A DNA stretch of 64,000 nt, taken from contig OX597818.1 of assembly GCA_951406725.2 (NCBI GenBank), positions 122,636,001 to 122,700,000 on the forward strand, in the 5' to 3' direction. The position numbers and the translations under genes were made by a program. Origin of the DNA: Octopus vulgaris (lineage: Eukaryota). Shown piece by piece: positions 2,992 to 61,414 of the stretch; position 1 is the stretch's first letter, and the number at the start of each line of letters is the position of its first letter. A model generated the notes under the pieces. It made no database searches. It saw nothing but the letters and a program-made list of their open reading frames with translations, and was not told the origin of the DNA.

Positions 2992-3022
<31 letters not shown>

Positions 3023-3712
3023 AAATGCTGTGAGTCTCGTATGACACCTCACTCGCGGTGCTAAAAATGAAATGAACTAGTGAGCGACCCCTTGCAACCT
3101 ATAGCTAAGGAATTTATTCTATACCAGATTTGTCATTACCATCTATCGCCAACTGGCAAAAAAATTGGACGCTGACACATTCCTTTTCCTCTTATCTGAA
3201 ATATAAATCAAGCTTTTGTAAGCAACGTTATGTGGAGAAATATGTTCATTTTTTTATTGCTAGTTTCCACTATCTTCATATGAATTCTTGACACTGGTAA
3301 CATTTCGTTGGACCAGTCGATCGATATTTGTCAATGGCTTCATCGTTCGTTTCTTGGTAGTTTATCGCAAATATAGTGCTGCAAACTTCACATAACCTTG
3401 CCATGCGTAAGACAACGACGTTCGAAGAGCTGGAGATGGTAAGAAGAAGCTGAATAACAAGAAATAGTAATTCAAACTCGCCTAAGTTTATTTGGAAGCC
3501 TAAAAAAAAAACGAAATTATTTACCAACCAAGACCTCAGCCCTAACATAACAACTAAATTTGTTCCAATTAACTTTTATTCTGTTCTTTATTTAGTTTCT
3601 GAATACATCAATATCTGGCAAAGTTACAAGACAAAATATTTTGGATTCAAAGCAAGAATAATGTGATCGCAATTTAAGTTATTATCCATTTATTATTATT
3701 ATTATTATTATT

Positions 3713-9577: not shown

Positions 9578-9810
9578 TATTTCTTTATTACCCACAAGGG
9601 GCTAAACATAGAGGGGACAAACAAGGACAGACAAAGGGATTAAATCGATTACATCGACCCCAGTGCGTTAGTGGTACTTAATTTATCGACCCTGAAAGGA
9701 TAAAAGGCAAAGACGACCTGGGCGGAATTTGAACTCACAACGTAACGGCAGACGAAATACCGCTAAGCATTTCATCCGACGTGCTAACGTTTCTGCCAGC
9801 TCGCCGCCAA
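9578..9810 (-). mobile_element. SINE family A (Meta-type core)
   Basis: Homologous to 2012-2243; 15-bp TSD ATGAT(C/G)GATGCAATA at 9563-9577 and 9811-9825. Confidence 0.9.
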
Positions 9811-33379: not shown

Positions 33380-34980
33380 GATGGTAGGCTTTGAAAACAG
33401 GTTTATAGACGCGAACACCTTTGCTCTTTGAGTTAAGGAGTCTACATTTCAAATTTAAGATTTGGTATAATTCTTCAATGCAAAGAAAGCAAAAGGTATT
33501 GCCAATTTTATAGGCATTGGCCCTGCTTACTTACTCCCATTCCACAGTAATCATGTTTTCTTGTCCTTTATATCCCAAATAAACTTACTAAGACTAGCCT
33601 AAGACGAAGTATTATAATTATTATTAAATGTATAATTGGGACTAGCGGTGTGCTTTCATATAGTTTTTCGTAGCACCGATGTAAAAGAAATTCTTAACTC
33701 CAGAATTCACTTTACGTCTATACACTACGCTGTTTTGATAACAACAACTATTAAACAAACATTTATTTCTATCTTTGCAATCACAATATATATTTTCCTT
33801 TTTATTCATATTACTATTAGGATTCATATGATTTGATTCAGTATAAGTATTATTTACATCATTACTTCTATTCTTCAGGTTAAGATGCGATTTAAAGGTG
33901 GTTTAAGAGAATTATTTTTACATTTTTCAGTAACATTATTTCTTAGATTATAATCGTTGCATTTAGTCGGATAATTATTGTTAAAAAAATTGATAATTTC
34001 CTCTCCATACAGGAAGAAAAATCTGGAACATATTCTTAGAAACAAAAAAAAAAACACTCGGAAAAAAAACTGGCGTTAATTACATCATAATATCTATTTT
34101 CTTTGATAAAATACTTAGAAAAAGTTTGTATAAAGATCAAACTAGATTGCTCGTAATTTGTTAAGCGAATGGAACAATGAGCTAAATAAAATTATTCTTA
34201 TCAGAAATTACATTATAATTCTCAAAATTTTTAATTCTATTTTTATACAGAGTGGAGTGTGTCTTTTAATTCCATTATTCCTATTACTAATTTCATGAGC
34301 ATTATCCGATGTACGATGCAATAAATTGGTTTTCATATTTTATCTATATGGCGTTTATTTTTAATTACTTCGTTTTTGTCCTTACTTCTATTACTATAGG
34401 TTTCTTAAAAATTATAGCTATCGTGAGTGACTTCCATGTTATTATAGCCACTACTGTCATCATCTTGTGCACAATACTTTAAATTCTGGTTATAGGCAGC
34501 TTTGTTGAGGGCCATATTATAATAGGCAGTATTTTTGCTAAAAATATTGCAGTTGGATGATGAATTAGACATTCTTATAGATATATTGTAAACGAAGAAT
34601 TTATTTTTACAGAACAAGGATAATTATTTCCAATATTGATATATTTAACATTGGAGTTAAATATATCAATCGTAATGAAGTTTAGGTTAACATCTAGGAC
34701 GTTAACCGACTTATGTTCATTTTCAATTGTTATGAAGAGCCCTTGTTTTTTTAAACCCGGTAAAAAGGGCATTGACCCTATATAAACCTCTCACAAGCTC
34801 AGGAAAATCCATTCCTAAAATATAGGAAATATAAATATCTACTAAATCAGTAACTTGATCAGAATCTGAGGAACCCATAGCAATACCAAAACAGTCACAA
34901 CTATTTTCCTTAATCCAATGCTTGTTTTCAAACTCTATAACCATTCTTCTGGTAACTAAATAACGTTAATTTCTTCCATG
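33380..34980 (-). pseudogene. decayed Penelope-like element (Neptune-type RT + GIY-YIG endonuclease)
   Basis: RT: FGIAMGSSDSDQVTDLVDIYI..GLYR, VNVLDVNLN; EN: CDCKDRNKCLF..CYQNSVVY...FYIGAT, LSKFIW, CFLCIEE. Confidence 0.85.
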
Positions 34981-37005: not shown

Positions 37006-38093
37006 CGAGGGGCGTTCAATAAGTAATGCCTCTGACCCACTTGCCGTTGATTTTGCATGTGTAATTATTTATATCTCTATAGATTAAGTGGCAAATTACA
37101 GCTCCGAACTAATAGAGGTTTCTGATTTACATGTGTTTGAAATGAGTCAAGTGGGAAATGGAGCCTGTTGAGTGTCGAGAAGTGATCCGGTTTTTGTATT
37201 TGAAATGACGCACACCACAGGAGACTTTTGATGAAATGAAAATAACTTATGGTGATGATGCCCCATCATATGACCTTGTATAACGCTGGCATCGTGAATT
37301 CAAACATGGTCGGAACTCTGTGGAAACAGCTCCCAGATCTGGTCGCACCCTTTCTGCCATTGATGAGGCATCTGTCCGTCAAGCTGAGGCTGCCATTTTG
37401 GAAAATGGACGCATAACTATTCGCCAAATAGCCCATGAGGTCAAGATTAGTACCGGGTCTGTGGAAACTATCATTCATGACCATTTGCATATGCAAAAGG
37501 TGTCTGCCAGAGGGATTCCCAGGTTGCTCACCCTTTTCCTGAAGCAAGAACGCGTCGAGTGCTCGAGGATGAATTTAGGGATGTGCCAAGAAGATGAGTC
37601 AAAGTTTTTCAAAAGACTGATTACACAGGATGAGACCTGGGTCCTTCACCATGATCCAGAGACCAAAGCCCAGTCAATGCAGTGGAAGCACCATGCCTCA
37701 CCTCCTACAAAGAAGGCAAGGGTGCAGCCCTCCGCTGGCAAGGTCATGCTCACAGTCTTCTGGGACCAGGCGTGCGGCTATGAACACTTCCCCCATCCCC
37801 CTACTCTCCTGACATTGCACCCTCAGATTTTCACCTCTTTCCAGCCATGAAGTTGTTTTTGAAAGGAAAGCGTTTCCCAGATGATGCAGCCTTGGTTTCT
37901 GAAGTAACGTCGTGGTTGAAGGACCAAGCTGGGGTCTTCTATGAAAACGGTCTCCAGAGCTGTATCAAACGATGGGAGAAATGCGTAACTCTGGGTTGTT
38001 CCTATGCTGAAAAAGACAAATGCCTGTGCCAAGTTTCGTTGCTCTACTGCTATGGGAAGTGGGTCAGGTGCATTACTTATTGAACGCCCCTCG
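37006..38093 (+). mobile_element. mariner (DD34D) transposon, internally deleted, non-autonomous
   Basis: TIRs CGAGGGGCGTTCAATAAGTAATGC, TA TSDs; ITQDETWV, KVMLTVFWD, PYSPD.APSDFHLF; lacks the QDNA segment. Confidence 0.95.
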
Positions 38094-38588: not shown

Positions 38589-38594
<6 letters not shown>

Positions 38595-40300
38595 CGAGAA
38601 AGAAGCAACAAGAATGGATAGGTTTTTAGTACAATCGTTTCATACAAGGACAGGCTTTATTAAAAGTTGCAAAAATTGCAGCATATAAACGTGTCCCGTA
38701 CTCATCAGCTAAAATACATGTGAGTTCTCTAGACATCCTAGTGGTTGAGGCTATACTCATGAAGTAATGTAGATAATTAAGTAACATAAACAGATTTCCA
38801 AAGTTCATTAAGTTTTTTTGAGAACAGGGAAATGAATAGTACTGATACGCTGCTTAATTGAGGCTTTATTTAATTTCAAACTCATAATTTTAAATTTTTA
38901 AATCTTAATTTTAAATCGTAATTTTAATTTTTAATTTTAATTCTTAACTTAATCTAATTTAAGTAGCATAACTTTAATAAAATAAAATGAGTTACTAAAG
39001 CCCCATAATTCTATTTCAAAATTAAATAAATAAGGCTACTCCCTCGTTGATAATATGATTAGCTTCATTATGATAGACAATTCCCTAACACCTTGTAAAT
39101 GATCTTCTAAGATTTGACATGTAGTCCGTCAATGTATGAATAATAACGGCAACTCCTTAAGACAGTATAATGAATAAATTAAATAAATAAATTTTAATGA
39201 CTTTTTGATTAGATTATACTTAGATTTTCCTAATGTATTTTCTTTTGATTTTAGCCTTTGACCCCTAAACCCCTAAACCCCTGACCGTGTTATCTCTTTA
39301 GATTCTCTTTAAATTCATAGCTGCTTTCGACAGCAATAAATTAGCTGTTTTACTGGTCAAAGAATAATATTCTCCTCTAGTTCCTAGATGCCTGTAAATT
39401 AAGACCAGACTTGCCGTCTACTAATTCTTCTGTATAACTAGAACCCTCTTTTTTTCTTTTTCTTTTTTTCCCTTCTTTCCTTATTTCTTTCTCTTTTCTC
39501 TTCTTTCTTTTTCTTCTTCTTCTTCTCTTTTTCTTTTTTTCTTTTTCCTTTTCTCTTCTCTTCTAGCCCCCCTCCTTTTGCTCCCTCCCCCTTTATTTTC
39601 TCTCTTTCCTTCTCTTTCCTTCCCTTTTCTGTTCTTGGCCTCTCTAGAAAGCCCTTCAGCCTTTAAAAGTTAAATAGCTACAGTCTCTTGAAAATAGCAG
39701 TAATGTGATTAATGTGGCAAATACTTAATCATATAGCAAGAATTGATACCCACCTCATTGTGTTCAACCATTGATAAATTTATCGCCTGTGAATATGAAA
39801 TTCCTCTTCATTTCTCTGGAAATTTACATCTACACCATTGGAAATTGTGCATCTATACAAAGGATTAATTCACCCTCTCTGTAATGCTAATAAGCAGGAA
39901 TTGAAACCCACCTCGTTGTGATTAGCAATGGATAAATTTGTCGTCTGTGAGTATGTAATCCCTCCTCATATCTCTGGAAATTCATATGTACACTATGGAT
40001 TAAGTCACCTTCTCTGTGATGCTATTAAAACTTTTTTTAAATTCTGTGATAAGACTGTAAATCATCTTTAAAGAACTTTAATGAACTTTGGAAATCTGTT
40101 TATGTTACTTAATTATCTACATTACTTCATGAGTATAGCCTCAACCACTAGGATGTCTAGAGAACTCACATGTATTTTAGCTGATGAGTACGGGACACGT
40201 TTATATGCTACAATTTTTGCAACTTTTAATAAAGCCTGTCCTTGTATGAAACGATTGTACTAAAAACCTATCCATTCTTGTTGCTTCTTTCTCGCTTATA
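38589..40300. mobile_element. fold-back element with ~225-bp inverted arms, each containing a hammerhead
   Basis: 38589-38812 is the reverse complement of about 40076-40300 (near-identical); HHR at 38624-38714 (-) and 40175-40265 (+). Confidence 0.85.
40175..40265 (+). ncRNA. minimal type-I hammerhead ribozyme
   Basis: ttttag-CTGATGA-gtacgggaca...tgtccttgtat-GAAA-cgattg-TA-ctaaaa; 6-bp stem I; AATAAA inside loop II. Confidence 0.8.
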
Positions 40301-40411
40301 ATCACCCCACATTACTGTATTGTTAAAACCGTATAGTTTGTTTTGGTGCATCTAAGTTAGGTACCATATTCAAGTAAATTCATTTAAATTAACTTGAATC
40401 TTTATTGCTTT

Positions 40412-40468
<57 letters not shown>

Positions 40469-41814
40469 TACAGGACACCACAAATAAACGTAGAACACAA
40501 CAAGAAACGAAAACATAAAATCAAACAAAGAAATGGACTTTTTTAACAACGAAAAAACAAGGAAACGGACTTTGTTAAAACAACGAATAAGCAGAGTACA
40601 GGACAAACAATACACGGAAAATTCCCCTTCATCAGCTGTCCCTGGTTCGACTCAATGCGTGTTTCGAAGGTAAATTAGTTAGAACGCATGTGAAAAATCG
40701 GCTTGCGAAGGACAGGGAAGTCGATCCATTCTTGTTGAAGCACGAATCTGAAAGAAAGTTTTAATAGCCCTCTGGTCAGGAGGAGGAGGATATATATATA
40801 TATATATATAATTAGATACATACATGCAAACATACATACATATATACATTCATACATAAATACATACATACATACATACATACATTCATACAAATATACA
40901 TACATACATACATACATACATACATACATACATACATACATACATACATACATACATACATGCGTGCATACAAGATTACTTTCCTTCTAAGCTAGGAACA
41001 GCAACATTCTCCTTTAGTGAAGAAGTCAGAAAATGAAAACAAAAAAGAAACAAAAAGCCAATACGAGGACACAAGCATGTTCATACACACACACACACTC
41101 ACACTCACACACACATATATATATTTAAATAAACGCCTACAACCACATATATATATATATATATGCAAACAGTCACACCAATATATAACCAGAGTAATAA
41201 AATGAAATGAAGTCCAATTCTCACCAAAAGAAATATTTTATACGTAGTATAATCAATCAACGTTTAGTTATCAACATAGGATATCAACATGTCTGCCAAC
41301 AATAGACATACATAACCAAAAGAAACGTCTGACTCATTACACTTAACTGTCTGATAGAATTTATAACCTCTCTCTCTCTCTCTCTTTCCTTCATCCCCTC
41401 CAGTGCGCTCTCTTTCACGTTCTCTCTTGATAGTGCGGCTTTCTAAAGTTTGTGTTCTAATTTACTTCACTGAATTGATGAGGGATTTGCCAAAGTACGA
41501 TTCACTTAGACACAAAAAAAAATCTGTATTTTTACTTTTCTTTCATTTTGTTTTTAATTTTTTAATGCCAGTTTTTTTATTTTTTTTTATCAAATGCCAT
41601 CCGATATCGAAATTAATCTCAGAATAGTAAATATATATTGTGCAAGCACGTGCGCGTGTGTGCATGTGTGCGTGTATGCACTTTATGTATGTATGGTATG
41701 TATGTATGCATGTATGTGCGTGTATATATAACTACATACGCTCACATATATAAATGTATATGTACACACACAGGCATACATACAGACATACATGCAAATA
41801 CATTCCTAAATATG

Positions 41815-41985
41815 AGCGCAGTATCGGGTTTACAATCATGAGGTAGTAAGTTCGATTCCCAATGTGTGTGTTGGGTTCTTGAGCAAGACACCTTAGTTCA
41901 CATTGCTCCAGTTCACTTAGCTGTTGACATGAGTTGCGACGTCACTGTTACCAAACTATATCGGTGCCAACCTTTCCCTTGAATT
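41815..41985 (+). mobile_element. degenerate tRNA-SINE
   Basis: gttcgattccc B-box, cttgagcaagacacc..cacattgctccagttcacttagctg. Confidence 0.55.
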
Positions 41986-41989
41986 CTAG

Positions 41990-42905
41990 GTATTACTCTA
42001 TTATCAATTCACATACGGTTAGGATTGGTTTTTCTAACAAAAATCTCTTACAAATTATCTCTTCACATAATAACAACCTGATAAATATTAATACATTTAC
42101 TAAAACTAACATTAATTTAGTTAATACCATCCATCCCTCTAGAAATATTGATAACAAGGTTATTGTATCTTAAGTCAATTCCAACAGAATTAAGTTAAGG
42201 TCAAGTAACTCTAAAATTAAAAATTCTATATACCAGTGTAAAATCAGTACTCAGAATAAAGTACGATTCTACATTGGAAGCACGTCGATACAGTTAACAT
42301 GACGAATTTCTATCCATTACTCAACATTTAGGGATAGGAATAAACGTAACAGTACAGGGCTCAAAAAATTAATTTGGGATCTATGAACAATTTGATTTAG
42401 AATGGTTGATTCTCTCAATCTCGATACCTTATGACAAAGGCAATGAATTCTGTCTTCTCTGTAATGCTGAACTATTTTCCATTATTTTTTCTAAAAAAAA
42501 TCCCCTAGTAAACACAGTTATAGAGCATGCATACCGATGTAAACATTGGCAAAAACACACCTTTAGTTCATATAAGTAATCTCTATCATCATACATAATT
42601 TAAACATTAATTTTCTTTTTATATTTAACATTCACTAAAAAATATTCCTCCTCTTTCTATAGGCTACTTCTGACGTTACATCATATAACGTTTTTTCAGA
42701 CAATATTAATAGCGTTCAGCAAATCACTATACATATCCATCATTTTCTGTTAGAATGTCTTATTGACGAGTTCCATTTCTGCACTTCCCTGAAGAGAAGA
42801 TTACGTTGTTTTACACCATTTATTCCTTTGGAATAATATCAGTGAAATCTTCGAAACATGTGTCGGAAGTAAAAGTTTTTGAATCATACTTGCGTTAAAC
42901 TCCAT
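41990..42905 (+). mobile_element. 3' remnant of a Penelope-like element: GIY-YIG endonuclease (to 42579) plus pLTR
   Basis: RFYIGST...HYSTFRD..NSTGLKKLIWDL..EWLILS..PYDKGNEFCLLCNAE..CKHWQK; hammerhead about 200 nt after the stop. Confidence 0.85.
42783..42870 (+). ncRNA. minimal type-I hammerhead ribozyme (canonical core)
   Basis: acttcc-CTGAAGA-gaagatt...aatcttc-GAAA-catgtg-TC-ggaagt; perfect 6-bp stem I, 7-bp stem II, GUC site. Confidence 0.88.
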
Positions 42906-43109
42906 TTATATACATATATATATAAATGAATGCATGTATGTATATATAATAAGATGAGAAAACAGAGAGGTAATTAATAAATTATTATTTATTGATTAAA
43001 ACGTTGACAAACATCCCTTAGGAACTGAAAACCTATTTTGTAATTCTTTAACTACCTCTGAAGAGATTCAACTTTCAAATAAATATTTGAACATCATAGC
43101 CTAGAATAT

Positions 43110-43897
43110 TACTAGGCTTACGAAAAATTAGTACTGGGGTCGATTTGTTAGACTAAAAACGGTGCTCCAGCATAGCCGCAGTCAAATGTCTGAAACAAAT
43201 AAAAGGATAAAAGAATAAAATAATATATATATGGTATACGTATGTATGTATACATATATGTTTGTGTGTCTTTGTGTCTGTGTTTTTCACCCTCATCCCT
43301 GTTTTAGACAACCGGCTTAAGAATATTAGGCTTAAGAAGTCCTCGTGTCGATTTCTTTGACTAAAACTCTCTAAAGGTCGTACTCCAGCATGGCCAAAGT
43401 CAAATGACTGAAACAAGTAAAAATATGTGTGTGTGTATGTGTGCGTTTGTGTGTGTATGTACCTATGTATACATATATGGGCGCTGGCGTGGTAAGTAGC
43501 TTGCTAACCAACCACATGGTTCCGGGTTCAGTCCCACTGCGTGGCATCTTGGGCAAGTGTCTTCTGCTATAGCCTCGGGCCGACCAAAGCCTTGTGAGTG
43601 GATTTGGTAGACGGAAACTGAAAGAAGCCTGTCGTATATATGTATATAAATATATATATATATACATACATATATATATATATATGTATGTATGTGTGAG
43701 TATATGTTTGTGGGTGTGTGTTTGTCCCTCTAGCATTGCTTGACAACCGATGCTGGTGTGTTTACGTCCCCGTCACTTAGCGGTTCGGCAAAAGAGACCA
43801 ATAGAATAAGTACTGGGCTTATCGATTTGCTCGACTATAGGCGGTGCTCCAGCATGGCCGCAGTCAAATGACTGAAACAAGTAAAAGAGTAAAGAGT
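43110..43897 (+). mobile_element. cluster of SINE family B copies and tails
   Basis: Three ggtgctccagcatggccgcagtcaaatgactgaaacaag tails (about 43160, 43380, 43845) and one complete copy at 43478-43897. Confidence 0.8.
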
Positions 43898-43909
43898 ATA
43901 TGTATGTTA

Positions 43910-45180
43910 CGAGGGGCGTTCAATAAGTAATGCCTCTGACCCACTTGCCGTTGATTGATCTAGGTGAGATTTTGCATGTGTAATTATTTATATCTCTATA
44001 GATTAAGTGGCAAATTACAGCTCCGAACTAATAGTGGTTTCTGATTTACATGTATTTGAAATGAGTCAAGTGGGAAATGGAGCCTGTTGAGTGTCGAGAA
44101 GTGATCCGGTTTTGTATTTGAAATGACGCACACCACAGGAGACTTTTGATGAAATGAAAATAACTTATGGTGATGATGCCCCATCATATGACCTTGTAAA
44201 ACGCTGGCATCGTGAATTCAAACATGGTCGGAACTCTGTGGAAATAGCTCCCAGATCTGGTCGCACCCCTTCTACCATTGATGAGGCCATTTTGGAAGAT
44301 GGACGCATAACTATTCGCCAAATAGCCCATGAGGTCAAGATTAGTACCGGGTCTGTGGAAACTATCATTCATGACCATTTGCATATGCAAAGGGTGTCTG
44401 CCAGAGGGATTCCCAGGTTGCTCATACTTTTCCTGAAGCAAGAACGCGTCGAGTGCTCGAGGATGAATTTAGGGATGTGCCAAGAAGATGAGTCAAAATT
44501 TTTCAAAAGACAAAATGATTACACAGGATGAGACCTGGGTCCTTCACCATGATCCAGAGACCAAAGCCCAGTCAATGCAGTGGAAGCACCATGACTTACC
44601 TCCTCCAAAGAAGGCAAGGGTGCAGCCCTCCGCTGGCAAGGTCATGCTCACAGTCTTCTGGGACCAGGACGGAGTAGTGATGACAGATTTCCTGGTAAAG
44701 GGTACCACAATTACAGGAGCCTATCATGCTTCACATTTGAGGAAATTAAGAGAAGCTATCAAAACCAAGAGGCGGGGCAAGATCAGCAAAGGCATCCTCC
44801 TCCTACAGGACAACGCTCCGGTCCACAACTCGCGTGTCGCCAGATCAGAAGCACAGGCGTGCGGCTATGAACACTTCCCCCATCCCCCTACTCTCCTGAC
44901 CTTGCACACTCTGATTTTCACCTCTTCCCAGCCATGAAGTTGTTTTTGAAAGGAAAGCGTTTCCCAGACGATGCAGCCTTGATTTCTGAAGTAACGTCGT
45001 GGTTGGAGGACCAAGCTGGGGTCTTCTATGAAAACGGTCTCCAGAGCTGTATCAAACGATGGGAGAAATGCGTAACTCTGGGTTGTTCCTATGCTGAAAA
45101 AGACTAATACCTGTGCCAAGTTTCGTTGCTCTACTGCTATGGGAAGTGGGTCAGGGGCATTACTTATTTAACGCCCCTCG
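43910..45180 (+). mobile_element. mariner (DD34D) transposon, near full length, defective
   Basis: Same TIRs as 37006-38093; ITQDETWV, LLQDNAPVH, frameshifted HPPYSPDL; premature TGA near the N-terminus. Confidence 0.95.
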
Positions 45181-45514
45181 TTCATCAGATCTCTCTTAGT
45201 GCTACTTGCGTCATGTAACCCGTTACAATTGGTCACGTAGTTTTTCCACAACCACTGGAATTTCAGTCTTCCTCAACACACTAACTTGAGAGTACATGTT
45301 TCTAGGATTTCAGATTGAATTCTGCACAGGAACTTTTTACCTGATCAAGACCTTAATACTACACATACATACATGAACATACACATGGCGTACACGCACA
45401 CACATATGTATGCATTTCTGCATGTGTATAGACCCATGGGTTTAATACTTTTGCTGTGTCTATAGCTTTTGTTGTATAGTAGTGTTAGTAGCAGAAGTAG
45501 CAGCAGCAGCTGCA

Positions 45515-45530
45515 GTAGTAGTAGTAGTTA

Positions 45531-45602
<72 letters not shown>

Positions 45603-45620
45603 AAGTAGTTGTTGTTGTAG
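45515..45620. repeat. (AGT)n microsatellite
   Basis: Direct inspection. Confidence 0.95.
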
Positions 45621-46099
45621 TAAGCACGTACCTTAGTGATTAAGTTGTTCTTATGGAAGTAAGCTCAAGGTCCCAATACGGGACTGGGAGCTGGTGTGCT
45701 ATGTCCTTGTCACACGCAATTTCACGTTATTTACAACTGTAAATAAGCACCACCCGGTTGCTATTGCAATTCTCTCTGTCTGTTTTTCTTACTTTCTTTC
45801 ATTCTTTCTTTCTTTCTTTCTTTCTGTCACTCTCTCTTCTCTCCCTCTCATCTCACTCCTTGCTCATTCCTCTCTCGCACTCGCTTTCTCTTTCCAGTAA
45901 AGAGCATAAGTAGAAATGGAGGAAAATACCGAAATGATGTATATAAAATATATATTGTTTTAAAGTAATAGATTTATGAAAGATGTCCTATTAGCTTCAC
46001 AATACTTACACACATCGTCAGTATCGTATCCTTGGATGATTATAACCGTACATCCTCATCTAAATGACCAGATTTGGTTTGGTCTATTCCTGGATGACC

Positions 46100-46400
46100 G
46101 TCGGTTACGACGAGTGTCCCAGATGATTCGGTCGACGGAACAACCTGCTCGTGTAATTAACGTGCAAGTGGGTAACTACGCCAGAGACATGTGTGCCTTT
46201 AACGTAGTTTCAGAGTCACACAGAATGTGACAACTCTAGCCCCTTTGAATTACTGATACAACTCATATTTTCCAGCTGAATGGATCAGAGTAACGTAAAA
46301 TATATTGGCTTGCTCAAGGACACATTGCACTGCCTAGAATCGCACTCAGGACTTTACAATCGTGAGCTGAATACCTTAGCCACTAAACCACATAACTTCA
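46100..46400 (-). mobile_element. tRNA-derived SINE family D
   Basis: gattcggtcgacggaacaacctgctcgtgtaattaacgtgcaagtgg homologous to 57330-57520. Confidence 0.7.
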
Positions 46401-46928
46401 CTAAACAACATTCCAGTGATCCACCGATTACTCCTTTTATCCAGATCTGGCTGTATGCTTTGACAATAGTCTCTGTGTTTTTCCTGTTGGCTCTACGTCT
46501 GTTCCTTTCTTTAGTGCCTGGGATTCCATCAACCATACCAGGGTACGATTTGTCAATACTTTCCTTGAATAAACTACCACTCCAGTTATGGATTCTATAA
46601 AATCGAGCACATCATCTATCTCTAAATTATATGTTCCTTTGTGTCTATACTAAATATCATTTTGAAAACCTATTGGCTTCATTTTATCTGGCTCTAAGTC
46701 GGTAACCATGTGATGCCTCAAACATTAATCTATTAAAAAGAACGAATTGGTCTCCCAGCTGCTGTTAAAGATGACGATGCAAAGTAGCATAATTAATAAG
46801 AAAGACAGAAACAACACAAACACAAACAATATATATTATACATGCATACACATTCATACACACATATACACATTTACGTATCATAGCGTATGCTCTGTAG
46901 CTGTATACCTAAACTGATATATATAGTG

Positions 46929-46982
<54 letters not shown>

Positions 46983-47023
46983 CATACATACATACATATA
47001 TATATGTATGTATAAATATATAC

Positions 47024-47058
<35 letters not shown>

Positions 47059-47232
47059 TCTTTGTATGTATGTAAGTATTATAAATATGTATAGATATGC
47101 GTGTGTTGATGTATGTTTTTGTATATTTATGCCGAATACTTAATTTGCAGATGCAATATATGCATATACGTGTGTGTGTACGTATATATCTACACACAGA
47201 CACACATAGACACACCTATGTGTATGTGTGTG

Positions 47233-47278
<46 letters not shown>

Positions 47279-47665
47279 AATACATATATATATATATTTA
47301 TATATATATATATATATACAATTATATATATGCATATGCATATATATGTATTTGTGTGTGTGTATATATATAAAGTGAGAGGGAGAGAGAGAGAGGGAAG
47401 GAGAAGAGAAAAGAGAGAGAGAAGAAAAGAAAGAGGAAGAAAGAGGGAAAATATCATTGCAATTCTGTATATATAAACTTCTCTTGATTCATTTTGCTCA
47501 ATCGAGATATTTGCTACGTCAATTATTTCTAGAATTTGTTTACGATTCTATTGTAAATTCTGTTCACATTATTATAGTTCAATAATCGCAATTGTAATTA
47601 AAATTTTAATTTAAATTTTGGCGGCACGTTGTTTGATTTGTTTTGTAATTGGATTTACTCCGAAA

Positions 47666-47705
<40 letters not shown>

Positions 47706-47810
47706 TGTGTGTGTGTATGTGTGTGTGTTTGTGCTTGTAAGTATGTAAGAATTAAATGTACAAACGTATATATATATACATATATATATATATATGTGTG
47801 TATGTATATG

Positions 47811-47882
<72 letters not shown>

Positions 47883-47917
47883 TACATGTATATACATATA
47901 TACATACATATACTTTT

Positions 47918-47967
<50 letters not shown>

Positions 47968-47971
<4 letters not shown>

Positions 47972-49910
47972 AATTGCAGCGTGGGAGGTGTTTATAAGCC
48001 ATTTAAGAAACACACAAAAGCCGTTCGATTCACTCCAACATTTAAGTTTAATTTGTCAAAATATTTTCGTCGCTAAAATCCGCGACCTGTTCACTGACAA
48101 AGTCCGTGCTGCATCTAAGAAAGTAACAGTTAGTTCGTCATATATATGTATGTACGTATGTATGTGTGTATGTATGCATATATGTGTGTATGTATGTACG
48201 TATTCATGTCCGCACATACGCCTGTGTATGCATGTATGTATGTATGTATGTATATATGTATGTGTGTGTATAAGCACGCACATACACTCTATAAAACATA
48301 AAGTTATAAACCTGTAGCGATGGATGGATGTAGAGTGACCACTCATCACAACGCTATCAAATTTCAACTCCCTACGGCCGAGGCTAGAAAGTGAATTTAT
48401 GACGCTTGCTCACAAGAACTATACCCTAAAATCTATTATCAGATTTTTATCTCTATATCACAGAACTAATGTTTTACTATTGTTCGTATGTATGTATGTG
48501 CGTATGTATGTATGTATGTATGTATGTATGTATGTATGTATGTATGTATGTATGTATGTATGTACATACGTACGCATGTGCGTATGTATGTATACGCGCC
48601 CGTATGCATGTGCCCATGTATGTGTGTGTGTACATGTACGTGCGTATGTACGTGTGTATGCCCATACGTAGGTATGTATGTATGTTTGTATTCATGTGCT
48701 ACGTATGTATGTGAGTGTCTAGGAGAATGGGCAGATGTGTCCGTGAGAGTGTGTACATGTGTATGTGTATGTGAACGTATGTCCGTGTACTGGCATGTGT
48801 CCGTCCAAGTTGTGTACATGACTGTTACTTAGCTGAAGGTTGTATACATATTTACATATATGTTTGTATAGACGCACACACATATATATATATGTGTGTG
48901 GGTGTGTGTTTGTTCCTCTCATCGTCGTCTAACCGTGAGACGACGGTTAGACGACGATGAGAGGAACAAACACACACCCACACACATATATATATATGTG
49001 TGTGCGTCTATACAAACATATATGTAAATATGTATACAACCTTCAGCTAAGTAACAGTCATGTACACAACTTGGACGGACACATGCCAGTACACGGACAT
49101 ACGTTCACATACACATACACATGTACACACTCTCACGGACACATCTGCCCATTCTCCTAGACACTCACATACATACATGTAGCACATGAATACAAACATA
49201 CATACATACCTACGTATGGGCATACACACGTACATACACACGTACATGTACACACACACATACATGGGCACATGCATACGGGCGCGTATACATACATACG
49301 CACATGCGTACGTATGTACATACATACATACATACATACATACATACATACATACATACATACATACATACACATACGCACATACATACATACGAACAAT
49401 AGTAAAACATTAGTTCTGTGATATAGAGATAAAAATCTGATAATAGATTTTAGGGTATAATTCTTGTGAGCAAGCGTCATAAATTCACTTTCTAGCCTCG
49501 GCCGTAGGGAGTTGAAATTTGATAACGTTGTGATGAGTGGTCACTCTACATCCATCCATCGCTACAGGTTTATAACTTTATGTTTTATAGAGTGTATGTG
49601 CGTGCTTATACACACACATACATATATACATACATACATACATACATGCATACACAGGCGTATGTGCGGACATGAATACGTACATACATACACACATATA
49701 TGCATACATACACACATACATACGTACATACATATATATGACGAACTAACTGTTACTTTCTTAGATGCAGCACGGACTTTGTCAGTGAACAGGTCGCAGA
49801 TTTTAGCGACGAAAATATTTTGACAAATTAAACTTAAATGTTGGGTGAATCGAACGGCTTTTGTGTGTTTCTTAAATGGCTTATAAACACCTCCCACGCT
49901 GCAATTGTTT
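47968..49910. repeat. 1.94-kb near-perfect palindrome (arms about 970 bp, 6-nt centre 48937-48942) with hammerhead variants near both ends
   Basis: Symmetry about 48939.5 (atcgtcgtctaaccgt-gagacg-acggttagacgacgat); mirrored ORFs in the track; HHR-like motifs at 48052-48101 (-) and 49778-49827 (+). Confidence 0.92.
49778..49827 (+). ncRNA. minimal hammerhead ribozyme variant with G3-C8 core swap
   Basis: tttgtca-GTGAACA-g-gtcgc..gcgac-GAAA-atat-TT-tgacaaa; 7-bp stem I, 5-bp stem II, palindrome AAAATATTTT. Confidence 0.7.
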
Positions 49911-50031
49911 TCGTTTCAGCACACGATCTCAGATCAAATTACTTGCTATGCGAGTACATCTCCGTAATATATATATATATATATATATATATCAATATAT
50001 ATGTTTATGTGAAATAGAGTCGGTGAGAAAG

Positions 50032-50066
<35 letters not shown>

Positions 50067-52639
50067 TAGATTGAAAAATAGATATACAGACAGATAAATT
50101 AGCAGCTGGTTAGCTTGATAAGTAGATAATATATGAAATGGAAAACGATTATGTGTTTCATCGTATCACTGTCACTGAACTACGTCGAATATCTGAAGAA
50201 TAATCAACTACTCTCTAGGCTAACGTAACTCTAGAAACTTCAAATGATTGTATTGCATCTACCAACCAAGTAATATCAATGTCAGCGTGTCTTTTTCGAA
50301 TAAAATGACTTTCTAAGCATTTTAGAAGCAATGTCAACCTTGAAAATATATCTAACTCGCTTAATCAATTATTCGGTCTGTATACGAGATTATCGTATTC
50401 CCAGCCTCAAAATAGACATATCTGATATAGTTCCGTTTTGCCTATGGAAATGTATCTTTCTTAATTCCCGTTTCAGCGTTTTCATTCCAGAAGCACTACA
50501 CATTCCCAAACAAAGCTCGGCTCCTTTCTTCCGAAGAATATCATCACAAAGGGACACAAATGAATATTCGGTCCTTATATCATTAAACAGTCGTTTAGTA
50601 GTTTCAGCCATCTGATTATCTACTAAATTTTTATCAGCTTGTAGTAAAATTGAGAAATTCTCAGTATACAAATAAAAGACTCGACTGACATTTAATTCAT
50701 TCCATAAAGTAAGCGTTACTATTTTAGTTCTTCTTCCAAATATATAATTGTGAATGTATAATTTCCTCAGAATATATTTGAGATTAGATGTATTGTTTTC
50801 ATGGGTCACATGGAACTGAATAATTAACAAGAATTTGTTAAACGTAATCAACATATACTATCCATTTAGTTACGTTTAAAGTCATGACTAACTGTAATTT
50901 CAGATTCTTTTATGTCTCATCCTCAAAATTTACCAAGCATACATTCCCATTTTAGGGAATATTTCAATAGCTGAAAGTATCCACTTATCCTTTCCGTTGT
51001 TCATTTTGGCTGACAGTATTATACATTGCATTGTAGTTTCCTTCACATGTAAACTCAAATAAAGAAAGGCTTGATAATGTTTTATTGAAACCTTCGTTTA
51101 AAAACTTTAAAACATTCTGGGTCTCTCTCGATTTTTCTCCACAAATATTGCTTGCTTTTACAATGCATACTAGCACTCTTACTAGCACATCAATGATAAA
51201 TCAAAATGTTGATTACGAATTTGTGTTTGCGTAGCAATAAAACCCCCCACAAATCTGCATTTACATCAAACGTTTGTCGACTCTACGAGCACGTGAAATA
51301 GCTTTTCATTTGTGTTTGGTAGATCAAAATAATAATATTAGATACAGGCTTTCAAACAACGTTTTACTTAAAATTATAAACTTGACAAGTTAAATCAATT
51401 TAACTATTTCCTCATTGACACTCAAAAAATAAAACTTCCATAACTATAGTATCAAATATGATCCACCATGTAAATTGACCGTTAAAACACAGTATAACGA
51501 TTCTGATATCGTAAACCCGTTGGCTAGTTGCGAAATCAGTGACAGGAATAACACTGAAATCGTATATATATATATAGTGACAGCGATATGTGTTTAGTTT
51601 GTGGTCACCAGAAGCCCATTGGTGACAAAGTCCAGTGCACACAAATTAAGAGATCCTCTAGTTCTGGCATCCATAACTGACGATCCTGATCTGCTACGAT
51701 ATATGTGTGTGCTTTTATACTCTACTGCAATATCCAGCCTTCTAACAAAACATACTCGTGAATTTGGATATAAAGATTGCCTTTTTGTACTAATACTGCT
51801 TCCATCACTAATAATCATTTTACTATTTATTCCAGAAAAAAAATGAATCTTGTTTCACAATAATTGTTAATCGCAATCGAAATATGATTTGACACTTTAA
51901 GAAATTAAACAAATTACTATCGAAATGGTTTTCAGAATTCTGATTATAATCTATACATTTCCCACCTGTAATGTCGATATTATCACTTCACACCTGAACC
52001 AATTTAATCATAAAAACACTTTCTCGTATATAAAAAGAAGACAATTCAGGTTTTAAAGGTTAAATAATAGACTAAAACAAGTATTAGAAGTATGATTATA
52101 ACACTTCATAAAAGAAACTAACTACTTACTTTCTGCTAATATTTATAATGCATACAAACTGAATATCAAATAATAAGAGTATTCTATATTTTACATATTA
52201 TTCAAGTGCTGTAAACAAATATGAAATAGCCGTTTTATCGTTCTCGAAAATTACTAATCATCAAAATGTTTTTTTTTCTTTTACCTGTTGATACTTCAGT
52301 ATTTTCTAATTATCCTTCATATTCTTGAGTATGTTCTGTGTAGTCACTTGGCATAAAGTGTTTCAATACTATAATTTCCTATTCTTTTTATAGAAAATGT
52401 GTGAGATATATATACATACATATATGTATTTATGTATTTATGTATGTATGTATGCATGCAGAAATTGATTAAACGGATATGTATTTATGTATTGAGATAT
52501 TTCTTCCATCAAGCTTATACATAGACGTACATATACATATTTACACACATACATGCATATACATATCCACAAACATACATACATACATACATGCATGCAT
52601 ACATACATACATACATACATACATACATACATACATACA

Positions 52640-52670
<31 letters not shown>

Positions 52671-53074
52671 GCACACATATATACAAACGTGCAACAAGAA
52701 ATACTCATATATTCGAAAGATTAGCTATAAAATAGATATATCTATAAAATTAACGATTCGAATAGCAAATTATATTTACAACACGCAGCCATAATTGTTA
52801 CATATAATAATAATCAACCTAGCACCGCCAACAAGGTACATAGCAGCCATTTTAATGTTTCTATGACATTATCTTTACGCTGATAGTATGTGTGTGCGTG
52901 CGTGTGTGTGTATCTGCAATGTTCGGCTTCGGTGAACCTTTCAGTGATGTAGAGTCGTGCTGATCTGATATTAAACACAAACACTCCCCACACACACTCA
53001 CATAAACACACTCACACACACGCGCCCATACACACACACTCACACACAAACAAACACATTCGTATATAAATACT

Positions 53075-53280
53075 CTTTACTCTTTTACTTGTTTCAGTCA
53101 TTTGACTGCGGCCATGCCGGAGCACCGCCTTTAGTTGAGCAAATCGACCCTGGGACTTATTCTTTGTAAGCCCAGTACTTATTCTATCGGTCTCTTTTTT
53201 GCCGAACCGCTAAGTGACGGAGACGTAAACACACCAGCATCGGTTGTCAAGCAATGCTAGGGGGACAAACACAGGCACAC
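53075..53280 (-). mobile_element. SINE family B, 3' half
   Basis: ttactcttttacttgtttcagtcatttgactgcggccatg...; its 5' half lies at 54736-54920. Confidence 0.85.
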
Positions 53281-53308
53281 AAGCACACACACACATACAT
53301 ACATATGT

Positions 53309-54517
53309 ATAAATGAAAGAATGGAGTCGAACGACGATTTAACAAAATTCCTTTATTCTCGACATACGTTTCGAAGACTGCATATTCTTAATTCCGAAGG
53401 AATAAAGGGTGCATTATGCCGCCTTCTCAACAGGAAAGACAAGGAACTTATGTCAGCATCATGACGAACAAAAACTTTTAGTTGACTGCCCACACGGAGT
53501 CCATAGTGATAATGAGTGTTTCTTTAAAATATTCCGTTATAAGCAGTGACGTCAAAATTGGTTGGATGAAGAATATTCTAAAAAGTTCAAGAGTTCAAAA
53601 ATGGATGGAAGGGGAAAGTTCTAAGAATAGGAAGGTGACAGAGTGCAAGTCGTATGTATGGGGGTGGGTTGTTGTTTGCTTTTGCTAATGAGATTGAGTG
53701 CCTATGTGTGTGTATGTATATAACTGCATTCGTGTCTATATGTGTGTGTGTGTGCGTGATTGAGTGTGTGGGGGGATAAATGCCAAATACATCTAGTGGT
53801 GAAGTGACAGGTTTGTGTCTGTGTTTGATTGTGCTTATGATAGAGAGAGGGAGACAGAGAGAGGGGGGAGGTAGAGAAACAAAGGTAAAACATATCCCGA
53901 CGAAATTTGGTTGTAGGCCTTCATGTAACGGGGTATAAAAACTGTGTCTATGGTGCTGTTGTAGGAGTGGAACCAAATTATTAAACTCAAGGAGGTTATC
54001 TATATTAATCATCATTCAAATGAGTGGAAGGTGTGATTCTGCCAGTGCATGCACCTATAGGATTTTTCTGCCATTGTGTTTACCAAAGGGAATTTGGTGA
54101 AAAGTATATAGAAAAGCTCGGAATTACAGACGCCACAATGTTTTCTGCTCTTATCAAAAGCAAAGGATACAGACAATATGGACCATTCCAGCTTGAAAGT
54201 TATATTGCTGTCCTTTTTTTAACCATTTTGAACTCTTGAACTTTTTAGAATATTCTCCATCCAACCAATTTTGACGTCACTGCTTATAACGGAATATTTA
54301 AAAAAAACACTCATTATCACTATAGACTCCGGGTGGGCAGTCATCTAAAAGTTTTTGTTCGTCATGATGCTGACATAAGTTCCTTGTCTTTCCTGATGAG
54401 AAGGCGGCATAATGCACCCTTTATTCCTTCGGAATTAAGAATATGCAGTCTTCGAAACATATGTCGAGAATAAAGGAATTTTGTTAAATCGTCGTTCGAC
54501 TCCATTCTCTCATTTAT
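53309..54517. mobile_element. fold-back element with ~295-bp inverted arms, each containing a hammerhead
   Basis: 53309-53604 is the reverse complement of 54223-54517; HHR at 53356-53438 (-, core mutated to CTGTTGA) and 54388-54470 (+, intact). Confidence 0.88.
54388..54470 (+). ncRNA. minimal type-I hammerhead ribozyme (canonical core)
   Basis: tttc-CTGATGA-gaaggc...gtcttc-GAAA-catatg-TC-gaga; palindrome ACATATGT; GUC site. Confidence 0.85.
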
Positions 54518-54669
54518 TTATAGTAATAAAACACACAAATTTCCACACGAAAGCACGTGATTTCTGCTCTTGGCATGTAGCTTCAACCGTGTTTTCAGAC
54601 GTAAATTTGCTACCCGGGTATCGGTTAACCGAATTATCCATACTAGGATAATTCACTCTTATATATATA

Positions 54670-57525: not shown

Positions 57526-58215
57526 CTAAAGAAAAAAACATAATGTTGTCAAATAAGATTGAGTAATGGCGTTCGTATTAATGCAATTGGGATTATTTTT
57601 ACTTAAATATGGCAGATTTAAGAGTAAGCATTAACAGCAACAATAACATCAAAATCAACAAGATTGTGTTTACACTAATTGAATGACACAGCTTGCTGTG
57701 TTAAATTGCCAGTTGAAGGAAAGAGTCAAACGCAATGGCGCCATCTACATTTCTGTTTTTATGAAAATACTCCTAGCAAGATATGGATCACACACACTCT
57801 CCCACAAAAAGAAAAAAACACTTAAAAATATGTACCTCTGCCCTCACACACTGCTGCAAGACAAATGATGGAACAAGTAGTGCTGTAACGCCTTAAGTTA
57901 TATATCTCTTAATCAAGCCTGAGCTAGGGCTAAACATTAATAAAAACAATGGCTGTTGACAGAAGCAACATTGCACTATTTCGTACACAGTCTCCGTTCA
58001 CTTCTTTATACAAACTAGTCATATTTCTTCTTCTTACAAGTACTTTCTGTGCTCGTCTTCCAATTGAAAATGATGTGATGAAACGTATATTTCCTGGTCA
58101 CTCCATCGCAGTTTGTATTGTGATACGGAGTGGACATAAGAATAAATTAATTATGTCAGCAAAGGAAAACATTTCAGTAAATTTCAGCATCGCACGTAAT
58201 GTGTAGGCACTCGAA

Positions 58216-58447
58216 GGCGGCGAGCTGGCAGAATCGTTAGCACGCCGGGCGAAATGCGTAGCCGTATTTCGTCTGCCGCTACGGTCTGAGTTCAAATTCC
58301 GCCGAGGTCGACTTTGCCTTTCATCCTTTCGGGGTTGATCAATTAAGTACCAGTTACGCACTGGGGTCGATATAATCGACTTAATCCCTTTGTCTGTCCT
58401 TGTTTGTCCCCTCTATGTTTAGCCCCTTGTGGGCAATAAAGAAATAA
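58216..58447 (+). mobile_element. SINE family A (Meta-type core)
   Basis: ggcggcgagctggcagaatcgttag...gttcaaattcc...cctttcatcctttcgggg...ttgtctgtccttgtttgtcccctct..aataaagaaata. Confidence 0.9.
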
Positions 58448-58650
58448 GAATCGTTAGCACACTGGGCAAAATGTTTAGCTGCATTTCGTCCATCTTTACG
58501 TTCTGAGTTCGAATTCTGCCGAGTTCAACTTTACCTTACACGCTTTCAGGATCGCTAAAATAAGTATCAGTTGAGCACGGGTCGATGTAATCGACTTACA
58601 CACTCTCCCGAAATTACTGGCCCTGTGCCAAAATTTGAAACCGATATTTA
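58448..58650 (+). mobile_element. related Meta-core SINE with a different 3' tail
   Basis: Same head and core but ends ggccctgtgccaaaatttgaaacc; the same tail occurs reversed near 5440-5460. Confidence 0.7.
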
Positions 58651-58704
58651 GGCATTCATAAATTGGACAATTATATTTTCCCGTTGTTGCCAAATAAATT
58701 TATA

Positions 58705-58938
58705 TATATTTCTTTACTACCCACAAGGGGCTAAACACAGAGGGGACAAACAAGGACAGACAAACGGATTAAGTCGATTACATCGACCTCAGTGCGTAAC
58801 AGGTACTTAATTTATCGACCCCGAAAGGATGAAAGGCAAATTCGACCTCGGCGGAATTTGAACTCAAAACATAACGGCAGAAGAAATACGGCTACTCATT
58901 TCGCCCGGCGTGCTAATTTTTCTGCCAGCTCACCGCCT
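58705..58938 (-). mobile_element. SINE family A (Meta-type core)
   Basis: Homologous to 2012-2243; imperfect ~18-bp TSD ttgccaaa(t/g)aaat(t/g)tata. Confidence 0.9.
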
Positions 58939-61414
58939 TTTGCCAAAGAAATGTATACAGTCGTTAGAGTATCGGATAGAATGCATCGCGGTATTCATTC
59001 TGAGTCACTGTTTTGTGAGTTCAAATCTCACCGAGGTGAAATTTGACTTTCATCGTTTCGAGAACGTTAAAATATTACCTATTCTAAATTTATCGTACAA
59101 TCTACATTTAGTCTTTGCATTCTGACTTCAAATATGCCCATTGTCCACATGGGTGGTAGACATAATCTCTAATCCAGTATACCACAACCATCTGAGACCT
59201 TGAATTCGTTTGGAAGAATCTACTGTCTATAAGCACTTGAGCAAAATCTCTCGTTTGAATATACCGTCATCCCACAGGAGGTTCTGCAAATTGTTATGCT
59301 CATTGTCTTTCCTTCTTGACAGCATGATTAAAACCCACAACTGAATTTTGTAGCTAGGGTATAGAAAATGATTTTGATTTCTTTGAAAATGGATTACATA
59401 TTGTTGCAGAACCCTTACACAATTTTCCTAAAATTTCACAGAATCCTATTAAAAGTAATAAAAATTATTTCAAAGAAAGATTTTATTAATATTGAAACAA
59501 TATATTATTTTAAGAAAGGTGAACACTATATTTCATTAAATAAATGTTAATGGAATTTTAATAAAAGAACTGCAGAATATTCTCAATGAACCCAGTTTTA
59601 GAAAGCTTGCGTATAGGAAAATATGTAATCCATAATATAATTATGATAATACGTGGTTTTGTTTGTAAGTAAGCTGAATATTGTTGGCTTTTAGCGATTG
59701 TTTTATTTTTTTTTATACGCACTCACATTATAAACATTTTCACCCTGGAACCTAATTGGCATTTGTATTCCAATCAGAGAAACATTGAATATCACGCACC
59801 TCATTAGACTGTACTGAAGGATTTGTTTCGCCTTTGTTTGCAAGATGCTGTTTCTGATTTGTCATGTACTGGAGGGTTTAATAAAGCTGAGATTCTTTTA
59901 TATTTACATTTCCAATTGGAGATATAATTAATCTATACAAAACGACATGCCGTTTCGCTGCTTTGCACTATCCATGTATTTGTGGAAACCAAGATTATAA
60001 ACCAATATGAACTATCTAATTAGTTTCTCAGAATTCTTTGTGGCAGACTGAATTCACATTAGTAAGTTCATGCTGGTGAAAAGCGTATGTATATGTGTCA
60101 GAATTTTGTGAACGGATGTCGTAAAATATATGTGCGTATTATTTAGAATCATTACACGTCTCCCATAGAAAAACGATTATGTCGGGAAAATTAGCTATAT
60201 TTTTATGGGCTTTATACATTTATTACATTCGTGTAATATAAGTAACATTTCATTGATTAATTGACTGTTAAAATATTCAATGGAATACGAGATGGATTCC
60301 ATTTTGATAACTAAATTGTCCTTATGATTCTGTGGGGTTAATTCTGAAAACGGTTTACAGCTTTATCGATATAATCTAAATAGAATCCAGCTAACCATTG
60401 TTTTTGAAATCTGCGAATCACGTATTTCTGCGTGTGATTATTTTCGTCTATTTCCCAGCACAATAAAAGTAGTATTGTTTCCAATCACTCGACAAATAAG
60501 ATTTTCGACGGTGCAGTTCGTTCGTCATGTCTTAATTAATGATAGAGAAACACTAAAATAGTTCCTAGTATTAAACCTGTTTTTGTGTGTGTTTTCATAT
60601 GAAAGAATAAGTTAATATATGACGTCTTATATAAACGAACGACTGCAAACATTGGGTAAATGTGAGAAAATTATTTAGGAATTGGGCTAGCACTTGTAAT
60701 GTAAAAGCGGTAATCTCTGTATAATGAATAGCCGATATAAATGTTAGCTGGTCGCTTACTCCAGTCACGCTTTACATCATATTGAGTGAGGAAGATAACG
60801 AGGAAAATAGGGATACAGAAAGAGTTAACGTCAGAAATTAAAGTCAATTGAGCAATGCTCAAATTGAAGGCATCTTAAGGAGTTCATAAAGATGAGACAA
60901 GCTACGTAGTTGACACACACTAAATAGGTGATGACGCATACAAGCACACGCTTACATGGGAGACATATTTAGAAAGCAAAGGGGATATACAGAAATAATT
61001 AATACATGAGACGCACGATGCGTGTCATATAACTTTATGAAGAATACACATTTGTATATGCAAAGCAGGAATAGAAGGTTGCGATTATATTAATAAAAAT
61101 TAGAAAAAAAAACTGTTTATTGCGAATATAGAATTAAGAAATTTATTCTATTAATTGTATTTAAGGCAATAAAAATTTTCGTTTTGAAAATTAATGTCCA
61201 TTTCAACATTTTGGACAAGTCAGGGAGAAACTTGGTAAAATTCAAATCATAATGTAGGCCATATTTTCTGATACCACTCATGGAAGGAAAACTATACTTC
61301 AAATTTTACCCGTCATATGACGTAAGGGTAACGTATTTTCTATATTTCATGTACGGGTGTAGATTATATATTCATATTATTACGTGTACATAAACACACA
61401 CACATATAGATGGC

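Follow-up and report, generated by a model that had tools for sequence, protein, structure and literature searches.

Fold-back arrangements of the kind considered here have already been published for endonuclease-bearing (EN+) Penelope-like elements (PLEs) (PMC8557442; PMC3846280). Cervera and De la Pena (2014, PMC4209133) describe dual hammerheads in opposite orientation, separated by 100-700 bp, and ascribe them to truncated PLEs. A PLE assayed in vitro was able to cut and extend both strands of its target, with RT starting at two sites that have the tail between them (PMC11167929). Here, we analysed a window of 64,000 nt from Octopus vulgaris (contig OX597818.1, positions 122,636,001 to 122,700,000), in which three fold-back units follow one plan: arms in inverted orientation, hammerheads that face outward, (TA)n on the flanks and a tail on one side. 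We consider these units to be almost certainly 5'-truncated, head-to-head insertions of autonomous endonuclease-bearing PLEs in (TA)n, and they do not form a new element class.

The geometry given in an earlier note on this DNA held up well. Arms put at about 225, 970 and 295 bp measure 231, about 970 and 296 nt; one-sided tails put at about 115, 55 and 145 nt measure 114, 56 and about 143 nt in units 1, 2 and 3, with (TA)n flanks present; and hammerheads placed 35-85 nt from the outer ends come, at their nearest edges, to 35, 83 and 48 nt of the tail-less end. A hammerhead in every arm, minus strand on the left and plus on the right, was recovered in 5/6 arms, the core being mutated in the left arm of unit 3. 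In unit 1 (arms 38589-38818 and 40070-40300, 98.7% identity), the left flank is a TA array ending at about 38592, the long and short arms overlap by 5 nt at the junction, and the hammerhead core is identical in 53/53 arms read:

38589-38818, minus strand: short arm, tail-less 3' end (pLTR) of the Hydra-clade PLE family E1 (family positions -230..0, 99% to parent L092)
38624-38714, minus strand: left hammerhead, type-I minimal, core CTGATGA...GAAA (descriptor scan; predicted cut after 38630)
38814-40300, plus strand: long arm, 3' UTR and pLTR of family E1 (family comparison)
40175-40265, plus strand: right hammerhead, type-I minimal (descriptor scan; predicted cut after 40259)
40301-40414, plus strand: tail, 114 nt, equal to the 5' pLTR-to-ORF segment of full-length copies
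40416-40465, no strand: right (TA)n target flank

Unit 2 is a single palindrome (47968-49910, 98.8% identity between arms) around a 6-nt loop, and its hammerhead has the same G3-C8 core in 44/44 arms read:

47968-48938, minus strand: tail-less arm, 3' UTR and pLTR of the Neptune/Nematis-type PLE family E2 (family comparison)
48052-48101, minus strand: left hammerhead, swapped core pair G3-C8 plus one extra base (GTGAACAG; descriptor scan)
48937-48942, no strand: fold-back junction loop, unique in the genome
48943-49910, plus strand: tailed arm
49778-49827, plus strand: right hammerhead, G3-C8 core (descriptor scan; predicted cut after 49820)
49911-49966, plus strand: tail, 56 nt, with an ATG that shares the reading frame of the parent ORF

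In unit 3 (arms 53309-53604 and 54223-54517, 96.6% identity), the interior extends the left arm, which has no tail; the tail follows the short arm:

53309-54215, minus strand: long tail-less arm, comprising endonuclease C-terminus, 3' UTR and pLTR of the putative Hydra-clade family E3
53357-53437, minus strand: left hammerhead, mutated core CTGTTGA (vs CTGATGA), missed by the descriptor scan; coordinates mirrored from the right arm
54015-54215, minus strand: last 67 codons of the GIY-YIG endonuclease domain, in the interior (87% identity to parent, E 1.6e-34)
54221-54517, plus strand: short tailed arm
54389-54469, plus strand: right hammerhead, type-I minimal (descriptor scan; predicted cut after 54465)
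54518-54660, plus strand: tail, about 143 nt (family: 151 nt)

The hammerheads are known by motif only, and their cut sites are predicted. Both strands of the window were scanned with a descriptor, which yielded 8 type-I hammerhead-like matches, 5 of them inside unit arms, one in a solo PLE end outside the units (42783-42870, plus strand) and 2 weak, at chance level. No hammerhead family appeared among the 150 of 321 Rfam cmscan matches listed, which microsatellite-like miRNA matches dominate, and single-strand folding did not recover the full hammerhead fold for monomers, as expected for motifs with a palindromic helix III. Target-site duplications are unreadable inside the (TA)n flanks. An inverted pair at 58214-58939 was set aside, having no hammerhead match and resembling dispersed repeats in the window.

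Judged by sequence comparison, every unit represents the 3' end of an autonomous PLE family present in high copy, in line with the earlier proposal that the units derive from PLEs with an inverted, tail-less pLTR rather than ordinary TIRs. Beyond the unit sequence, 26/30, 27/30 and 23/30 genome loci continue upstream into an ORF with RT and GIY-YIG, and full-length or near-full parents were found for E1 (L092), E2 (L102) and E3 (L130). The parent ORF is single and was assigned to RT plus GIY-YIG endonuclease by motifs and homologues; a Pfam scan of 6 proteins returned no RT or GIY-YIG family. Full-length L092 reads pLTR, tail, 957-aa ORF, 3' UTR, pLTR, and the partial tandem pLTR-tail-ORF-pLTR occurs in L092, L098 and L183 (E1) and in L102 (E2), and was not seen for E3. 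The pLTR hammerhead is present in the parents as a motif, and the 3' ends of E1, E2 and E3 are all bimodal, with two fixed ends and the tail between them. Motifs place E1 and E3 in the Hydra clade and E2 with a Neptune/Nematis type. As previously claimed, the DNA of unit 1 is unrelated to that of unit 3, although their parent RT regions are 44% identical. Likewise, the units contain no RT, but the interior of unit 3 does code, for the 67 C-terminal endonuclease residues.

The new observation is a count. All head-to-head pairs with both outer ends visible join one tailed and one tail-less end (67/67), a census drawn from the best 30-40 of 1200-3900 candidates and biased to young, long copies. 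Of 86 seed insertions, 49 were head-to-head, and every one was tailed plus tail-less (38 tailed seeds with tail-less partners, 11 tail-less seeds with tailed partners; Fisher P = 3.4e-11), while the other 37 had no partner end within the fetched 7.5-10 kb. Further pairs followed the same pattern (15/15), as did 3/3 in a held-out set of 14 new loci, in which 11/14 did not show both ends and were left uncounted. Duplicate views of one insertion (L008, L056, L060, L073) were removed before counting. The one apparent tailed/tailed pair (L166) proved to involve an internal pLTR, and its outer end is tail-less. (TA)4 adjoins 119/126 outer ends. The tail-less arm reaches further in 20/62 pairs and the tailed arm in 31, with 11 equal; arms range from a tail-only stub up to 4.5 kb, and a whole hammerhead is missing from one arm in 9/64 pairs. 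Across the three families, minority alleles common to both arms number 112, 26 and 89, against 11, 9 and 3 recurrent discordant ones, indicating that both arms of a pair trace to one source copy, although gene conversion between arms after insertion could mimic such sharing.

As the best explanation overall, to which we assign a probability of about 0.9, we propose truncated head-to-head PLE insertions, likely made by priming from both strands. In a target cut within (TA)n, each strand would prime RT, one at each of two fixed start sites, and the two cDNAs would extend toward the 5' end and halt early. Joining would involve short microhomology or filler in the Hydra families and, in the Neptune/Nematis-type family, often cDNA snap-back. 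Each pair of outward hammerheads is the pLTR ribozyme copied twice, and finished units would not be mobile again as wholes. The paired-priming step itself, in which both strands of the cut target prime reverse transcription, we regard as an even call. More tentatively, and with a likelihood slightly below even, one PLE dimer may use the two start sites of a single RNA exclusively, one per target strand, yielding exactly one tail in every inverted insertion, with the joining specific to each clade (Hydra microhomology, Neptune/Nematis-type snap-back).

A self-primed hairpin intermediate, of cDNA or antisense RNA, could instead double the 3' end, with the endonuclease trimming one arm at the tail-less site on resolution. 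Self-priming was proposed in PMC3846280, and PMC8557442 speaks of 'EN-mediated resolution'; such a route would likewise yield single-source arms. The E2 hairpin junctions fit it equally well, with stems of at least 9 bp in 10/22 pairs vs 3/150 control positions, and E2 arms often reach equally far. In the Hydra families, however, only 1/41 pairs has such a stem, and with the tail-less arm longer in those 20/62 pairs, the simple version must trim either arm. Either arm may be longer, and a single primed cDNA folded back cannot explain both patterns. We regard self-priming as a serious though unlikely rival.

The earlier note favoured a class of non-autonomous, PLE-dependent ribozyme fold-back elements moving as units, for which three units within 16 kb, none with an RT inside, might speak; non-autonomous PLE derivatives do exist, according to the abstract of 10.64898/2026.07.22.740005 and to PMC8557442. 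Yet the units are filled with 3' UTR and ORF-end sequence from autonomous families, arm length varies continuously, and one arm may lack a hammerhead. Moreover, the whole-unit recurrence with identical junctions that was looked for genome-wide failed to appear: with exact patterns and a variable gap, each internal junction was found at 1 locus in the 2.8-Gb genome, and the units were therefore not copied whole. We consider such a class very improbable. If anything more improbable still are TIR DNA transposons (MITE or foldback) and, likewise, fold-back artefacts of the assembly. Long inverted ends and TA flanks resemble them, and contigs from four public runs, which extend into the ORF at 54215, are short, none crossing the unit 3 inversion. 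The arms, however, are retroelement 3' ends that differ by 1-3% within a unit, the mirror symmetry halts precisely at the family's tail-less end with the flank excluded, and an artefact would not follow the one-tail rule in every pair. The suggestion that read-through gives hairpin RNA for ADAR or RNAi is geometrically possible; over unit 3, the short contigs show 7 A>G places in one run guessed to be RNA and 5-7 in the other runs.

Truncated head-to-head insertion bears modestly on the way in which PLEs complete their integration. The one-tail rule, the freedom of either arm to be longer and the single-source arms together constrain models and lead to a sharp prediction for the in vitro PLE system already established. 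If the exclusive use of the two start sites is true, PLEs would have a fixed-site twin-priming cycle readable from genomes, and E2 would also have a natural, conserved G3-C8 hammerhead. In the literature searched, with most subscription papers outside its reach, we found neither a strict one-tail or twin-priming statement nor a natural G3-C8 PLE hammerhead. Repeat annotators should be cautious, as such units mimic TIR transposons.

Among known systems, the Hydra clade, including Hydra-1_Obim of Octopus bimaculoides (PMC8557442), shares with E1 the RWK and DKT motifs, the CxCX5C linker, CxxC and CxH, as well as a GIY-YIG at the C-terminus, a hammerhead and insertion into (TA)n. The E1 monomer is about 4.6 kb vs under 3 kb for that clade, and N-rich inserts (16% Asn) and a 1.5-kb 3' UTR are further differences. 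E3 lacks the CxCX5C linker (protein L107), and we file it as a Hydra-related variant because it retains DKT, CxxC and CxH and the RT identity to E1. E2, placed by motifs, resembles the Neptune/Nematis clades in its C-terminal EN, its CX3CxxC linker (CX2-5CxxC being a Neptune or Nematis feature), and a CCHH pattern, in which a pair of cysteines lies between GIY and YIG and histidines follow downstream, but has DKS. The supplement of PMC8557442 contains none of the exact 8-residue RT motifs of families E1-E3, so these are other families than those in it. PMC4209133 describes minimal hammerheads that, as here, are type I with a palindromic helix III and an extra base after position 9; the variant it names is U3-A8, whereas E2 has the core swapped to G3-C8, which in the literature searched occurs only as an engineered rescue (PMC11167929). 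Finally, EN+ PLE insertions (Craig et al. 2021, PMC8557442; Arkhipova et al. 2013, PMC3846280; Schostak et al. 2008, PMC2377424) share with our units 5' truncation, an inverted 5'-truncated neighbour copy, a tail that often occurs at just one end, insertion into (TA)n, palindromes where the inverted copies meet and asparagine-rich ORF inserts. They differ in tail length, quoted as 30-40 bp for them but measuring 56, 114 and about 151 nt in our families, and in that the single tail, described there as occurring 'often' or 'optionally', is here without exception in the 67 pairs.

Three inverted pairs proposed in an earlier note are borne out in the sequence as fold-back units, each with two arms arranged head to head, hammerheads outward. 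Arms measure 231 nt (98.7% identity) in unit 1, ~970 nt (98.8%, loop of 6 nt) in unit 2 and 296 nt (96.6%) in unit 3, and the one-sided tails, claimed at ~115, 55 and 145 nt, at 114, 56 and ~143 nt. A type-I hammerhead descriptor gave eight matches on both strands of the 64-kb window, five of them outward-facing within unit arms; a hammerhead in every arm had been expected, and the sixth, in the left arm of unit 3, has a mutated core (CTGTTGA). The unit 2 core, GTGAACAG, has its 3-8 pair swapped plus one extra base and was identical in 44/44 arms read; a natural G3-C8 hammerhead from a Penelope-like element (PLE) was not found in the literature searched, where most subscription papers were lacking. 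The units, which derive from PLE families E1, E2 and E3, and their neighbors are:

38589-40414: unit 1 (E1)
47968-49966: unit 2 (E2)
53309-54660: unit 3 (E3)
34474-34959 (-): RT fragment, 45-47% identity to E1 and E3
37784-38083 and 44127-45107: presumably Mariner-like transposase remnants, from motifs in the translations; more sequence upstream in fetched locus L001
40467-40790: end of a high-copy repeat, flanked by TA tracts and adjoining unit 1, that lacks ~190 nt present in other copies; read on the minus strand, GAAAC comes ~30 nt ahead of CTGATGA, opposite to the type-I arrangement, and inspection by eye found no convincing stems; opposite-strand pairs of the repeat occur at other places
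41970-42900 (+): another, older PLE fragment of Hydra-like type, the fourth here, with an endonuclease remnant (56-64% identity to E3), a 3' UTR and a hammerhead (42783-42870); it terminates in (TA)n, and an inverted arm was not seen
58214-58939: SINE-like dispersed repeat in two inverted copies (91%), with further copies at 2007-2243 and 9575-9808; the descriptor scan of the window found no hammerhead in this pair

Searching the 2.8-Gb genome, which named protein matches suggest is octopus-like, with each unit gave 2000-3900 candidates, the best 40 per unit being scored and the best 30 fetched. Upstream of the window's junction, sequence continues in common with other copies at 26/30, 27/30 and 23/30 of these best loci for units 1, 2 and 3, respectively, and leads into an ORF with a terminal GIY-YIG domain. 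A complete E1 copy (L092) consists of a pLTR (the repeated, hammerhead-bearing PLE end), tail, 957-aa ORF, 1.5-kb 3' UTR and pLTR; the tail is therefore the sequence directly after the 5' pLTR, and in E2 it includes an ATG that shares the reading frame of the ORF. The interiors are free of RT, as described earlier, but not wholly non-coding, since the minus strand of the unit 3 interior encodes the final 67 residues of the endonuclease; where this coding stretch breaks off, contigs of four public runs carry on into the ORF.

In each family, 3' ends lie at two fixed sites, and we show that every head-to-head pair with both outer ends visible combines one tailed with one tail-less end. After removal of four duplicate views, 86 seed insertions were counted, of which 49, including the window's three units, had an inverted partner and both outer ends visible; all 49 obeyed this rule (38 tailed and 11 tail-less seeds, each with a partner of opposite type; Fisher p = 3.4e-11). 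So did 15 further pairs chosen from match tables (including L166) and the three complete pairs at 14 new loci, giving 67/67 overall. For the remaining 37 seeds, no partner end was visible in 7.5-10 kb of sequence, and 22 of them have (TA)n at the 5' junction; 119/126 outer ends adjoin (TA)4. The rule is a useful quantitative constraint on PLE integration; a statement of it as exceptionless was not found in the literature searched, which lacked most subscription papers.

The earlier note's class of non-autonomous fold-back elements does not stand: interiors are parental 3' UTR or ORF, junctions are unique and arm lengths vary. Whole units with identical junctions do not recur, as junction-spanning patterns matched only the window's own locus in the whole 2.8-Gb genome. 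In other insertions an arm may be as short as a tail-only stub or as long as 4.5 kb, and one arm lacks the whole hammerhead in 9/64 pairs. The units are not mobile as wholes, and their two hammerheads are an effect of arm length.

Minority alleles shared between the arms of one insertion far outnumbered discordant recurrent alleles (112:11, 26:9 and 89:3), which points to one source template for both arms, a pattern that later gene conversion could mimic. The 63 junctions comprised 34 overlaps of 1-11 nt, 5 blunt joins and 24 with filler; stems of at least 9 bp occurred at 10/22 E2 junctions, 1/41 in the Hydra families and 5/450 control positions. The short E1 arm begins 128-143 nt from the tail-less end in 5/28 pairs (L012, L014, L016, L020, L161), immediately 5' of the hammerhead (stem I from -125, counting upstream from that end), and fillers in L020 duplicate the same spot. 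E2 breaks fall within 7 nt of -960 in 4/29 insertions (window 48937-48943; L069, L081, L082), a possible RT pause site, and E3 breaks cluster likewise at -905 (L031, L042, L050), although query edges may bias both clusters. E1 tail-less ends mostly read CGCG before (TA)n, versus CGCT internally, and truncated end L162 retains GCG, suggesting that the first bases may be added or re-primed.

Parents, fixed ends, tailed/tail-less exclusivity, unique junctions and shared alleles are the observations bearing on mechanism. Each target strand may prime at one of two start sites; both cDNAs would stop early and be joined head to head. A PLE protein, a predicted dimer, cut and extended both target strands in vitro and started RT at two internal sites bounding the tail, hammerhead cleavage being dispensable (PMC11167929); start-site use showed no difference between strands, which counts against the priming proposed here. 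Fold-back of one cDNA on its own would not make the tail-less arm the longer of the two after priming at the tail end, and would produce no tail after priming at the other site. The main rival, a self-primed hairpin followed by endonuclease trimming (PMC3846280, PMC8557442), agrees with the E2 junction hairpins and is a less likely but plausible route. Of the 62 pairs that could be measured, 31 have the longer arm on the tailed side and 20 on the tail-less side, and in 11 the arms are equal within 40 nt; these proportions are skewed by the queries, while the occurrence of both directions is clear.

The units are real features of an already known architecture. PLE 5' ends are often adjoined by an inverted 5'-truncated copy, tails are often present at one end only and (TA)n is a preferred target (PMC8557442); one inverted pLTR may carry an optional tail, with palindromes at the junction and Asn-rich inserts (PMC3846280); dual minimal hammerheads on opposite strands have been attributed to truncated PLEs (PMC4209133), and Penelope has variable inverted terminal repeats (PMC2377424). 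Derivation from PLEs with an inverted, tail-lacking pLTR, as invoked previously, is borne out. A read-through transcript of a unit would, from geometry alone, form a long hairpin.

E1, E2 and E3 are apparently three families without a catalogue entry, and a Pfam scan recognized none of the parent proteins. The E2 protein carries CX3CxxC, CCHH and a C-terminal endonuclease, i.e., it would be a Neptune or Nematis type PLE by these motifs. The E3 RT region is 44% identical to that of E1 and lacks the linker motif CxCX5C. E1 has RWK, DKT, CxCX5C, CxxC and CxH, thereby sharing all these marks of the Hydra clade, whose catalogued families include Hydra-1_Obim (PMC8557442). In both Hydra families here, Asn-rich in-frame inserts (16% N) lie between RT and endonuclease (L092:4019-6892 in E1; L107:6461-7783), resembling those described for Adineta vaga Penelope elements (PMC3846280).
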